Virus record (IMG/VR): IMGVR_UViG_2579779067_000003
Source: a virus
Lineage: Duplodnaviria; Heunggongvirae; Uroviricota; Caudoviricetes
DNA length: 46,439 nt
Reading direction: 5' to 3' (one strand)
Positions 28,079 to 36,280 of this stretch are shown in pieces. Position 1 is the stretch's first letter; every line of letters begins with the position of its first letter. Both the position numbers and the translations under genes were made by a program. The notes beneath the pieces are model-generated. The model had not been told where the DNA came from, did not search any database, and saw only the letters and a list, made by a program, of their open reading frames with translations.

Positions 28079-28349
28079 GATGTTACCGTAGTATGTGAGT
28101 ATCCATCGAATAGATACCAAGCAAAAAAGCTCCCGAAGGAGCCTTCATTTTCACTTTTTTAAATCCAACGACAGACGGCTGGCATTTAAGTATTGTGAAA
28201 TATTATCAAATGTAATCATCATTGATTTACAAAAGATACATTTTGCCCCGAAAGGATTCATGTCAGAAACATCAAAAGATGATGTTCTATACTGGGAACC
28301 ATGACAACACGGGCATCTAAAGTGAATATGGTTTGTAATATTGTCTACC

Positions 28350-28562
28350 TCAAAGCGCCACTACATGAACAGCGGCAGGACCTTTAGGTCCGTTCTCAAT
28401 ACCAAATTCAACTTCCTGATTCTCAGTTAATGTTTTGAAATCGTTGCTCTGAATTGCTGAGAAATGGACAAACACATCTTTGCTGCCATCTTTCGGCGTG
28501 ATGAAACCAAAACCTTTTTCAGGGTTAAACCATTTCACTAAACCAGTCATTTTGTTAGACAT
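28350..28562 (-). CDS. cspI: Cold shock protein CspI (CspA family)
   Basis: 70 aa [38 protein letters not shown]... with RNP1/RNP2 cold-shock motifs; long 5-prime untranslated region upstream. Confidence 0.9.
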
Positions 28563-28925
28563 AATTATTACCTTTTGAAGAAATTAGCCCTTGGGCAGAA
28601 TGGTCCGAAAAAAAATATCAGAGAGAAAAACCAACAAGGAAATCTCAAGAGGTACAAATAATAAAATTATAACAATGACTGCTTCAGATAAATTTGTAAC
28701 AAACCAGAACACCATTAACGCATGATTAACCACCCATAGCAAGGATTACTTTTGTAAAGAAAAACACAGCAATGAAAGAATAGCTTTATTTATTAATAAT
28801 AACGTGTCATTCTGATTAAGACCTTTTATCTTACCCTTAAGATTTCAGGAATTTTGGCTCATGGAAGAGTCCTTTTTATTTAAATTTTACATTCCGCGAT
28901 GTAAATGTTCCGATTTAATATTACC

Positions 28926-29949
<1,024 letters not shown>

Positions 29950-29953
<4 letters not shown>

Positions 29954-30261
29954 AGATATTTATGATGAGGACGCTCGTGCTTATTGGCAGGATTTTCAAT
30001 CTTAAAGGAGTACTGATGCTGCAGATAAGACTCAACTTTTTCTGACAATTTTTCTGCTACTTCCAGGAAGACTTGCCGGACGCTCATTCTGGCTGCTGCC
30101 TCATAAAACTCCAGCGCAGCTCCTTCAACACGGTCCATGGCGACATCCAGGCCAAAAATTTCACCGTCAAAGCGTTCTTTGTCCTGTAAGGCTACAGTTA
30201 CCGTAACTTTATTCTCAAAATTACGGACTCCTTTCACAACCAGTTCATAGTCTTGAGTCAT
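29950..30261 (-). CDS. ydfR: YdfR (DUF1327) protein within lysis cassette
   Basis: 103 aa between holin and lysozyme; stop overlaps lysozyme start (ATGA). Confidence 0.7.
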
Positions 30262-30265
30262 TGGA

Positions 30266-30481
30266 TTACTCTCCTCTCGCAGCCTTACGCCTGTCTTCTT
30301 TAATCTTGAAATAAAGATTTGTCAGATACGTCAGCATGCCAAATACCAGACTACCCAATACACCTATTGCCGCCCACTGTGAGGGCGTGACTTTATCGAG
30401 CAACTGTAAAAACCAGTAGCCAGCACTGCCTGCAGAGGTGCTGTAGGCGATGCCCGTTGTTAACTTATCCATGGATTTCAT
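30266..30481 (-). CDS. essQ: Holin (phage 21 S-like class II pinholin) with dual-start motif MKSM
   Basis: 71 aa [71 protein letters not shown]; two TM segments; GGAGGTG upstream; track ORF extends 28 codons upstream. Confidence 0.85.
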
Positions 30482-30571: not shown

Positions 30572-30602
30572 AAAAAGAAAAACGCCAGCAATTATTCTGG
30601 CG
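30572..30602 (-). terminator. Intrinsic terminator downstream of the AraC-family gene, upstream of holin
   Basis: Plus-strand A-rich run then CGCCAG-CAATTATT-CTGGCG; on minus transcript hairpin followed by UUUUUCUUUUU. Confidence 0.5.
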
Positions 30603-30671
30603 TAGCTAAAAATATCGTATAATCTTACACTTCAAAAAATAACTTTATAAAATGCCATCACATCATATCTT

Positions 30672-31394
30672 CTAAGAAAATCTTGATAAATATTGGTGCG
30701 GAGGCACACCAAAATATCCTCTAAAAACACTTACAAAATATGATGCATTGTCATACCCGCATATTCCCGCCACCTTGCCGACAGTATGGTTACTGTAGAT
30801 CAATAATCTTTGCGCCATCATCATTCGTTCTTCAAGAATTAATTTACTAAACGATAATCCTTCGTCTTTTAATTTTCTTTTTAACAAACTCTCGCTCATA
30901 TATAATCTTGAAGATATATCACAAAGTCTCCATGACGCTGAGATATCCGAGTGAATAATAGCCTTAACTTTACAACCTAAGCTATTAAGACTTCCGAACA
31001 AAAAACTTTGCACTATTTTCTCTGAAGATAAGACAGCAAGACATGCAAGTGATATTTGATTTCTAACTACATCCACGGTTTTGCTATCACAATTCAAGCA
31101 TGCAACCAAGTTCTTTAACAATGAAAAATCTTCACATTCTACTATCAAGTATGACGGATAAAACCTTCTTACAGAAAAAGGTGAGAGTGTGTAGTTTTTA
31201 AAGAAATCATTAACTGTTTTCTCCTCAACATCTACGATCATTAGATGATCTGTATTTGACGAAAAAAGATCTTTTAAATTGTATTCAATGAGGACAGCAT
31301 TTCCTTTTTTAAACAAAATATCTTCTTTACCAATTCGGACACCAAACGAGTTCAACACCAAAATGATAGAACATATGTATGGCATATTATCCAC
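30672..31394 (-). CDS. AraC/XylS-family transcriptional regulator (AT-rich cargo gene)
   Basis: 240 aa with C-terminal AraC-type HTH region (…MAQRLLIYSNHTVGKVAGICGYDNASYFVSVFRGYFGVPPHQY); AT-rich gene and upstream region. Confidence 0.8.
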   Translation of the reverse strand: MDNMPYICSIILVLNSFGVRIGKEDILFKKGNAVLIEYNLKDLFSSNTDHLMIVDVEEKTVNDFFKNYTLSPFSVRRFYPSYLIVECEDFSLLKNLVACLNCDSKTVDVVRNQISLACLAVLSSEKIVQSFLFGSLNSLGCKVKAIIHSDISASWRLCDISSRLYMSESLLKRKLKDEGLSFSKLILEERMMMAQRLLIYSNHTVGKVAGICGYDNASYFVSVFRGYFGVPPHQYLSRFS

Positions 31395-31791: not shown

Positions 31792-32751
31792 TTAATTCAC
31801 CATCAGTCTTAGAGCCAGTTCTTCCGGATAGGGATCGAAGTAATTCTGTGTAAGCAAGTAATCATTAGGATACTCACCCAGATAATGCTTCAGCAGAGTC
31901 AACGGCGCAAGAAGAGGCAATGTGCCAAAGCGATAGTTAAGTATAACCTCGCTCAACTCTTTACGCTGGCGTGTACTTAAGTAATTACTAAAATACCCCT
32001 GTATATGCATCAGCACATTCGTGTGATTTTTACGTGATGCTGGTTTTCTGAGAATCGCCATCAGATTATCACGATACACCTCAAAGTATGATTCAAGGTC
32101 CGCCCACTCGTGTATTGCAGCCACAAATGGTCCCATATCTTTATAGCCTGCCTGGCTATGCGCCAACAACTGAAGCTTATAACGACTATGAAAAGCTAAT
32201 AACTCTCTTCTTGATAATTTCTCCTTGTAAAGATGATTGAGCTCATGCAAAGCAAAAACTCTTTCAATAAAATTCTCACGAAGCACTGGATCATGTAATC
32301 GCCCATCCTCTTCAACCGGTAGCCAGGAAAACTTTTCCATCAAAGTGCTCGTAAATAGTCCCACTCCATCTTTACGACCTCGATTACCATTTTCATCATA
32401 GACACGCACGCGCTCCATGCCACAGCTGGGAGATTTAGCACAAACCACAAACCCCGATACATCCTTTAATTTGTCCATATAAGAACGACTAAACTCTGTC
32501 ATTCTCTCTGTCACATCCTCATTCTGGTCGTGGCTGAAACACATCCGTATATTTCCTTGCTTCGAGCGCACAAGTCGTAGAGCAGGACGCGGAACTGGCA
32601 GCCCTATAGCCATTTCCGGACATACTGGTCTGAATGTTACCCATTCCACTAATTTGTCCATTAAAAAGTCATCTCTTTTGTGACCACCATCAAAACGAAC
32701 AGCAGAACCGCCCAAACAACCGCTGATCCCAATCACAGGTTTTTTTATCAT
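31792..32751 (-). CDS. DUF523/DUF1722 two-domain protein (TudS/YbgA-like)
   Basis: N-terminal GISGCLGGSAVRFDGGHK motif typical of DUF523, conserved Cys at about 12, 44, 105; C-terminal half YbgA-like. Confidence 0.65.
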   Translation of the reverse strand: MIKKPVIGISGCLGGSAVRFDGGHKRDDFLMDKLVEWVTFRPVCPEMAIGLPVPRPALRLVRSKQGNIRMCFSHDQNEDVTERMTEFSRSYMDKLKDVSGFVVCAKSPSCGMERVRVYDENGNRGRKDGVGLFTSTLMEKFSWLPVEEDGRLHDPVLRENFIERVFALHELNHLYKEKLSRRELLAFHSRYKLQLLAHSQAGYKDMGPFVAAIHEWADLESYFEVYRDNLMAILRKPASRKNHTNVLMHIQGYFSNYLSTRQRKELSEVILNYRFGTLPLLAPLTLLKHYLGEYPNDYLLTQNYFDPYPEELALRLMVN

Positions 32752-32943: not shown

Positions 32944-33468
32944 ATGAAGTTATGGCCTGTGTTGACTGGCATTGCACTCTCTTTCACTCTTATAGCATGT
33001 AAGGCCCCGACACCACCTAAAGGTGTGCAGCCGATTACAAATTTTGACGCCAACCGCTACCTCGGAAAATGGTATGAAATAGCTCGCCTCGAGAACTGGT
33101 TCGAACGTGGTCTGGAACAAGTCAGCGCTACTTATGAAAAACGGAACGACGGAGGGATTCGCGTACTTAACCGTGGATACGATCCAACGAAAAACAAATG
33201 GAGCGAGAGCGAAGGTAAAGCATACTTTACTGGAGATACTAAAACTGCAGCGTTGAAAGTTTCGTTTTTTGGCCCCTTCTATGGTGGCTATAATGTAATC
33301 AAGCTGGATGATGAGTATAAGTATGCTCTTGTCAGTGGTCCGAACAGAGAATACCTATGGATTCTGGCAAGGACCCAAACTATTCCAGATAATGTAAAAG
33401 CAGACTATGTGCGTACCGCTCAAAAGTTGGGATTCAATGTCAATGAACTATTATGGGTTAAACAATAA
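32944..33468 (+). CDS. blc: Bacterial lipocalin Blc-like outer membrane lipoprotein
   Basis: 174 aa; signal peptide with lipobox LIAC; NFDANRYLGKWYEIARLENWFERGLE and SFFGPFYGGYNVI motifs as in E. coli Blc. Confidence 0.85.
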   Translation: MKLWPVLTGIALSFTLIACKAPTPPKGVQPITNFDANRYLGKWYEIARLENWFERGLEQVSATYEKRNDGGIRVLNRGYDPTKNKWSESEGKAYFTGDTKTAALKVSFFGPFYGGYNVIKLDDEYKYALVSGPNREYLWILARTQTIPDNVKADYVRTAQKLGFNVNELLWVKQ

Positions 33469-33496: not shown

Positions 33497-33523
33497 AAAA
33501 AAACCAGCCTTTGGGGAGGCTGG
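33497..33523 (-). terminator. Candidate tR-prime terminator downstream of Q
   Basis: Plus-strand A7 (33497-33503) then CCAGCC-TTTGGGGA-GGCTGG; on minus transcript hairpin followed by U7. Confidence 0.55.
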
Positions 33524-33582
33524 CTAAATCAGGAAACAAGCTGTTATATGATAATAACTACGTTGCGATTCCAACATTTAAA

Positions 33583-33623: not shown

Positions 33624-34001
33624 TTATTTCGAACAATCAGCATCCATCTCCAATCGGAGATCCAACACCATCAGCATGCCCTCCACTACGCCCTCAGCTT
33701 TCTGGAGCATCCTGCCAACCCAACAATCAGATCGCCCATGCTTACGTGCAAGCGCCATAAAAGTCATGCCGCCGACATAATAGTCCACCAATAAATCATG
33801 TAAATCGCTGTTGTTTTTTTTCAGGCGAGCCATACATTCACAAATGATCATCGCGTCATCGTCACAGCATTGCGGACGAGATCTTACTTTTGAAGGAATT
33901 AATCCCTTAAAACCGGCGGCAATGGACGACCAGGTCACATCTTCATGATTATTAGCCGCCCATGCCCCCCAACGCTCAAGAACCATCTGAATATCACGCA
34001 T
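33624..34001 (-). CDS. quuQ: Antitermination protein Q (small Phage_antitermQ type)
   Basis: [60 protein letters not shown]...; ATG at 33999-34001; track start is TTG extension. Confidence 0.75.
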
Positions 34002-35894: not shown

Positions 35895-36050
35895 TTACTC
35901 CTCAGGTTCGTAAGCTGTGAAGACAGCGACCTCCGTCTGGCCGGTTCGAATTCGTACCTCGCAAAGGTCTTTCCTCGTTACCAGTGCCGTCACTATGACG
36001 GTTAAACAGATGACGATCAGGGCGATTAACATCGCCTTTTGCTGCTTCAT
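35895..36050 (-). CDS. hokD: Hok-family type I toxin
   Basis: MKQQKAMLIALIVICLTVIVTALVTRKDLCEVRIRTGQTEVAVFTAYEPEE (51 aa); track ORF with 19-codon upstream extension may correspond to the overlapping mok frame. Confidence 0.85.
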   Translation of the reverse strand: MKQQKAMLIALIVICLTVIVTALVTRKDLCEVRIRTGQTEVAVFTAYEPEE

Positions 36051-36280
36051 AGCCTGCTTCTCCTTGCCTTTCGGCACGTAAGAGGCTAACCTACATGTGT
36101 CTAGCATGAAATTGGCCTCAGATTAATGTTAAGCGTCTTGCAGGACGCGTAATGTTAACTGGGGCTTTTCTCTATCTGCCTTTGGTGTTCATGCCTGAGA
36201 CAGATAGCCTCAAGCACCCACGGAAACTTTACTAAAGGAGTTATAGCTTTTCCAGTAGTCTCAACATATTCACATTGCTA

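Follow-up and report, generated by a model that had tools for sequence, protein, structure and literature searches.

RudS and its described relatives

Proteins that fuse a TudS domain to a DUF1722 domain are known as RudS; they remove 4-thiouridine (s4U) from tRNA in vivo as well as in vitro (Jamontas et al. 2024, Nucleic Acids Res., PMC11417400). Overexpression of six RudS orthologues in E. coli, RudS_vir included, lowered tRNA s4U 4.7- to 26-fold; stand-alone TudS and YbgA did not lower it (PMC11417400). RudS_KT (PP_0741) of Pseudomonas putida KT2440, which is encoded in a light-regulated LitR-photolyase operon, has been characterised both biochemically and by mutation. Mutating its cysteine ligands, Glu51, Ser111, Ser113 or Arg60 abolished activity, and a Y25F variant is active (PMC11417400). 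The DUF1722 domain of RudS binds tRNA at the anticodon arm; Ser243 and Arg244 of RudS_KT contribute to this binding (PMC11417400). MerR control has been noted for the Salmonella RudS, and the rudS of Enterobacter cloacae has also been discussed (PMC11417400).

RudS_vir is gp66 (H3V29_gp66) of Escherichia phage 1H12 (NC_049947). It is well expressed, yet desulfidates tRNA less than RudS_ST at comparable protein levels (PMC11417400). The gene described here encodes a protein of the same length (319 aa), identical to RudS_vir at 293 of 319 positions (92%) without gaps; the 26 substitutions and a DNA identity of about 91% place the two in separate allele groups. The enzyme is not unexplored: it has been described, it is known from phages, and a 92% identical orthologue has been shown to be active (PMC11417400). 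With the family, the reaction it catalyses and its coliphage members all published, the locus does not represent a new kind of system.

The prophage and its moron cassette

The window (the whole 46,439-nucleotide stretch of DNA that was analysed) is filled from ydfJ to the integrase by a complete-looking lambdoid prophage, and is up to 100% identical to E. coli chromosomes. In E. coli YZ3E2001, the identical region is a prophage inserted between ydfJ and rspB, which is the Qin site. Its annotation there begins with integrase, excisionase, exonuclease, dicB, immunity and replication genes, hokD, DUF968 and Q; the cassette, holin, lysozyme, Rz, cold-shock, terminase, portal, capsid, tail and tail-fibre genes follow. 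The prophage-borne position proposed for rudS is borne out, as the gene lies between the Q antiterminator and the holin (Table 1). The Q-to-holin interval is the classic moron slot of lambdoid phages.

Table 1. Features of the rudS region and of the rest of the window
Feature	Position	Strand	Basis or remark
rudS coding sequence, 319 aa	31792..32751	-	ORF and translation, Pfam, DNA matches, RudS_vir identity
TudS/DUF523 catalytic domain, residues 7-149	32305..32733	-	PF04463
DUF1722 domain, residues 192-309	31825..32178	-	PF08349
Purine-rich Shine-Dalgarno-like stretch, CAAGGGGGAGGAA	32752..32764	-	Sequence reading; abuts the ATG upstream
Late-gene antiterminator Q	33624..34001	-	PF06530, E 8e-51; RefSeq annotation; upstream of cassette, same strand
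Hairpin with T-run, GC-rich; candidate tR'	33502..33525	-	Terminator scan and sequence; about 100 nt 3' of the Q stop codon
blc, outer-membrane lipocalin lipoprotein	32944..33468	+	PF08212, E 7.5e-43; same moron cassette, divergent from rudS
AraC-family regulator gene	30672..31394	-	PF12833/PF00165; third gene of cassette, downstream of rudS
Terminator-like hairpin with T-run	30582..30603	-	Terminator scan and sequence; between AraC-like gene and holin
Lysis cassette	28926..30481	-	ORFs and annotation of the identical E. coli region; downstream of rudS
Holin	30266-30481	-	Lysis cassette
DUF1327 ydfR	29950-30261	-	Lysis cassette
Lysozyme	29420-29953	-	Lysis cassette
Rz-like	28926-29423	-	Lysis cassette
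cspA-type thermoregulator leader	28323-28708	-	Rfam; upstream of prophage cold-shock gene cspI
sok antitoxin RNA	36045-36219	-	Rfam; next to hokD
P-loop ATPase, 518 aa	36281-37837	-	RefSeq 'Sll1717 family'; between hokD and replication/immunity region

The arrangement is well conserved. Among 80 IMG/VR loci with rudS, blc is present in 79 and the AraC-like gene in 76, and the order Q - blc - rudS - HTH gene - holin is kept in 76-79 of the 80. The same order is found in phage 1H12, which surfaced independently in a DNA search of phage records, and in phage IdasGreatGrand, whose RudS is 97.5% identical. The window and 1H12 differ upstream of Q: the integrated prophage carries a DUF968 gene at this point whereas 1H12 carries rusA/ylcG. 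Two short contigs binned as 'Candidatus Nanosynbacter sp.' (JARKOR010000151/135) also contain Q, blc, rudS (92-97% identity), the AraC-like gene and holin; these are almost certainly E. coli prophage sequences placed in the wrong bin.

The blc product scores 312.6 bits with the NCBIfam Blc model (cut-off 267). The AraC-like gene is AT-rich (33.5% GC, compared with 43% in rudS); 886 E. coli genomes contain 80% or more of it. Its product has weak similarity to YdeO/GadX/HilD in the DNA-binding domain, far below the cut-offs. It might regulate acid resistance in the manner of the EHEC prophage regulators PsrA, PsrB and PatE, or be one of them; its megablast matches are generically annotated genes only.

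Rfam models detect nothing in or beside rudS; their only matches elsewhere in the window are sok and the cspA leader. The gene for the 518-aa P-loop ATPase, which has no PADLOC match, may have an as yet uncharacterised accessory or defence role. The PADLOC library likewise returned no defence-system match for RudS, the AraC-like protein, Blc or the exonuclease, and a defence or counter-defence reading of the cassette thus has no support from it.

The rudS gene and its protein

The initial annotation gave no strand for the gene. The plus-strand frame over 31792-32751 contains many stops; the ORF runs from ATG to stop on the minus strand. The N-terminal motif quoted in that annotation, GISGCLGGSAVRFDGGHK, corresponds to residues 8-25 of the 319-aa product. 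Annotated E. coli genomes contain 100% DNA matches to the coding sequence, and RefSeq holds an identical protein (WP_000592549.1) under the label 'YbgA family protein'.

Both domains predicted from the sequence were recovered over their full Pfam profiles. PF04463 ('2-thiouracil desulfurase', the former DUF523) matches over profile positions 1-141 of 141 (E 5.8e-40; 137 bits against a cut-off of 34.7), and PF08349 (DUF1722) over positions 1-117 of 117 (E 9.4e-40; 136 bits against a cut-off of 22.5). As sequence matches, both are far beyond chance.

The fused architecture separates the protein from two related classes. TudS (DUF523Vcz, PDB 6Z92) has a common fold and active site with it (CxxG..., CPE and SPSCG motifs, three cysteine ligands, Glu and Ser) but has one domain only; it is about 150-166 aa long, 28-29% identical, and acts on free bases and nucleotides (thiouracil, 4-thio-UMP). 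At 319 aa with a fused DUF1722, the window protein falls outside the stand-alone TudS class; it scores 17.7 bits with the NCBIfam TudS-related model, whose cut-off is 130. YbgA (b0707) of E. coli K-12, encoded beside photolyase, is a stand-alone DUF1722 protein without a catalytic domain, and it is the C-terminal half of the window protein that resembles it. The NCBIfam YbgA model (PRK10167) matches residues 161-315 only (155 residues, E 4.7e-56), and at 189 bits stays below the equivalog cut-off of 237. The RefSeq name is explained by this match of the C-terminal half to the YbgA model.

RudS_KT, on the other hand, has the same two-domain architecture, as do the chromosomal enterobacterial RudS proteins (318-319 aa, 66-76% identity), among them RudS_ST/ORF319 (STM1389) of Salmonella LT2. 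A Salmonella protein in the comparison set (P0033) is 73% identical to the window protein, and the homologues among the matches listed are all enterobacterial and at least 69% identical. In one E. coli entry of 403 aa (P0002), a RudS of 98% identity is fused to a GGDEF domain (PF00990); this is probably an assembly or gene-calling artefact, since it is a single sequence from a single contig.

Cluster ligands and catalytic residues

In a phmmer alignment with 6z92, the predicted [4Fe-4S] ligands C12, C44 and C110 align with C10, C43 and C104 of TudS. The surrounding motifs are also in register: C44-P-E46 pairs with C43-P-E45 and S107-P-S109-C110 with S101-P-S103-C104. TudS 6z92 is the sole solved relative detected by sequence (E 8e-4). 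The three-cysteine TudS pattern claimed earlier for residues 12, 44 and a position near 105 is therefore right for the first two. The third ligand is C110 of the SPSCG motif, because it is this residue that aligns with C104 of TudS; C104 of the window protein is invariant among enterobacterial homologues but pairs with a non-ligand position of TudS. With this change, the three cysteines and the TudS cluster ligands correspond.

The predicted catalytic residues are E46 (in CPE), R55 (in PxPRP) and S107 and S109 (in SPSCG), in register with TudS. Neither the three ligands nor these four residues vary among 29 enterobacterial homologues, and 79 of 80 IMG/VR loci keep them all. RudS_vir shares the cysteine positions 12/44/110; Table 1 of PMC11417400 lists these numbers for RudS_vir and the same ones for RudS_ST/ORF319 of Salmonella LT2. 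By numbering offset and shared motifs, Cys17/49/114, Glu51, Arg60 and Ser111/113 of RudS_KT correspond to C12/44/110, E46, R55 and S107/109. RudS_KT Arg24-Tyr25-Asn26-Gly27 corresponds to R19-F20-D21-G22, and the tRNA-binding pair Ser243-Arg244 would have its counterpart in S239-R240.

A comparison of an AlphaFold model with TudS structures, suggested in the initial annotation, agrees with these alignments. The AF2 model, built from 29 close homologues, is of moderate quality (mean pLDDT 68, pTM 0.69; low confidence at residues 13-29 and 281-319) and was used for the TudS-domain fold match only. In a Foldseek search of the PDB, its N-terminal domain matched only four entries, all of them TudS (including 6z96/6z92; probability 1.00, target TM 0.57-0.59, 28-29% identity). 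The DUF1722 half of the model has no significant PDB neighbour in the same search.

Because of its 92% identity to RudS_vir and its invariant ligand and catalytic residues, the window gene is rudS by every sequence criterion tested; its activity is taken from the literature.

Origin of the cassette

The closest bacterial relatives, sought in one-genome-per-species contigs, are chromosomal and 66-76% identical; they come from Citrobacter, Kluyvera, Klebsiella, Enterobacter, Leclercia, Pectobacterium and others. A Blc homologue is encoded divergently upstream of chromosomal rudS in 42 of 64 loci; it is mostly 75-80% identical (68-70% in two). Chromosomal rudS has a MerR-family (MlrA-like) regulator as a neighbour and also a transthyretin-like gene, whereas the phage cassette lacks both and lies in a late operon. 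In Enterobacter cloacae, blc and rudS are separated by an MlrA-like MerR regulator (MerR HTH with MlrA helical and C-terminal domains) and by a transthyretin/HIUase-family gene. Citrobacter sedlakii is the single chromosomal case in which blc and rudS are directly adjacent as in the phage. The prophage contains no MerR/LitR or photolyase gene, which are a typical though not a defining context of RudS.

Since chromosomal rudS, too, has blc as its divergent neighbour, gene order and sequence suggest that the two were probably captured together from an enterobacterial chromosome and that the MerR-type regulator was lost. Synonymous divergence (dS) between phage and chromosomal rudS is saturated, and the blc-rudS spacers of the phage and C. 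sedlakii give no meaningful alignment that would indicate a shared promoter region; the capture is therefore old. No AraC-like gene was found beside rudS in the 64 chromosomal loci, and this gene was presumably added to the cassette separately.

Probable late-operon transcription

In lambdoid phages, tR' is a terminator that is read through by Q-modified polymerase. The GC-rich hairpin 3' of Q occupies the same place and may be the tR' of this prophage. No further Q target was found between this hairpin and the lysis genes. A scan for consensus promoters is at background (13 found, 11.8 expected), so that neither pR' nor a rudS promoter could be placed with it; the sole consensus match near Q agrees at 9 of 12 positions.

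As rudS lies between Q and holin on the late strand, it would be crossed by the Q-antiterminated late transcript. This transcript would pass blc in antisense and then cover rudS and the AraC-like gene before reaching the holin; on this layout, RudS would be made on induction at least. The window contains no tRNA genes, and RudS is therefore not paired with phage tRNAs.

Distribution and retention

Far from being unusual phage cargo, as had been supposed, related copies are found in about one fifth of complete E. coli genomes and in 127 IMG/VR contigs. A rudS match is present in 1136 of 5426 complete E. coli genomes, with at least 80% of the gene in 1064 (19.6%). By identity of the allele, the 1136 genomes split into three bands, with 407 at 99% or more, 619 between 95 and 99% and 110 between 90 and 95%. 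Carriers include the commensal reference strain E. coli HS, and the full-length protein is encoded in 12 deposited coliphage genomes. It has been stated that E. coli lacks RudS (PMC11417400); this is true of K-12 and of laboratory strains, but does not extend to the species as a whole.

An alternative is that the gene is a passive hitchhiker, a decaying chromosomal fragment without function for phage or lysogen, and there are signs of decay. About 70 of the 1136 genomes hold less than 80% of rudS, and IS elements lie inside or beside the cassette in several E. coli genomes. In BL21(DE3)-type strains, the common expression host, Q and blc remain but rudS is reduced to its first 147 nt, cut next to IS3 (for example E. 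coli Nico21(DE3), NZ_CP053600.1 1589699-1589845); these strains thus carry a natural rudS-null remnant of the same prophage cassette. However, the ORF is intact in 79 of the 80 viral loci with all catalytic residues kept, and the gene occupies the same slot in the virion-forming phages 1H12, the Lambda_ev series and IdasGreatGrand. Relative to the 1H12 allele, dN is 0.04 at a dS of 0.29 (dN/dS 0.14); the TudS half has a ratio of 0.23 and the DUF1722 half (residues 151-319) one of 0.10. The gene is under purifying selection. Genome counts and selection data together indicate that rudS is a common and maintained cargo, and a functionless passenger is very improbable.

Proposed function

The explanation that best fits the comparisons above, and one that is very likely correct, is that the prophage RudS is a tRNA s4U desulfidase carried as a moron in the Q-to-holin late operon. 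For the cluster chemistry, this account follows what has been published for RudS proteins (PMC11417400). C12, C44 and C110 would hold a [4Fe-4S] cluster, whose free iron would bind the sulfur of s4U at tRNA position 8. E46, placed by R55, S107 and S109, would then activate a water molecule, converting s4U to U and sulfide; meanwhile the C-terminal DUF1722 would grip the tRNA by its anticodon arm. The expected outcome would be a fall in host tRNA s4U, so that near-UV would cause fewer s4U8-C13 cross-links, arrest translation less and delay growth less. Overexpression of the Pseudomonas orthologue RudS_KT gives less near-UV cross-linking and growth delay (PMC11417400); by extrapolation from this, RudS may have a role in the UVA tolerance of the phage or lysogen.

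The initial annotation had offered two substrates, thiolated tRNA nucleosides and nucleobase analogues. Action on the former is established for the RudS family, including RudS_vir of phage 1H12 (PMC11417400), and by analogy would extend to its 92% identical relative in the window. Action on the latter is weakly supported: with RudS_vir, a uracil auxotroph grew late on 4-thiouracil, did not grow on 2-thiouracil and did not grow as it does with TudS (PMC11417400). The protein might nevertheless be mainly a TudS-like desulfidase of free 4-thiouracil or 4-thio-UMP, serving salvage or detoxification of thiolated pyrimidines in preference to acting on intact tRNA. Its catalytic domain is after all a TudS domain, and RudS_vir gave the shortest 4-thiouracil lag of the RudS proteins tested (PMC11417400). 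However, no RudS matched the growth seen with TudS, none supported growth on 2-thiouracil, and all RudS lowered tRNA s4U when stand-alone TudS did not (PMC11417400); the strong purifying selection on the fused DUF1722 also argues against it. A main role on free bases or nucleotides is accordingly quite unlikely. Given the short 4-thiouracil lag of RudS_vir and its lower tRNA activity relative to RudS_ST, such substrates could still make some contribution alongside tRNA s4U desulfidation.

A more specific proposal is that rudS in the late operon is adapted to prophage induction, where erasure of s4U would shield phage late protein synthesis, or to near-UV tolerance in lysogeny. This is tentative and, at present, rather doubtful. 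Sunlight or UV triggers SOS and induction, while its near-UV component cross-links s4U8 to C13 in host tRNA and stalls translation. Alternatively to a role in induction, lysogenic conversion would give near-UV tolerance to about 20% of E. coli strains; on either view, losing the MerR-type regulator and coming under control by Q would be the adaptive change.

Implications

The RefSeq label 'YbgA family protein' conceals the RudS identity of these genes. As about one fifth of complete E. coli genomes carry a prophage rudS, strains may differ in tRNA s4U and in their response to near-UV. The position of rudS in the Q-to-lysis slot, without its usual regulator, provides a direct handle on what a phage may gain from erasing a host tRNA modification.
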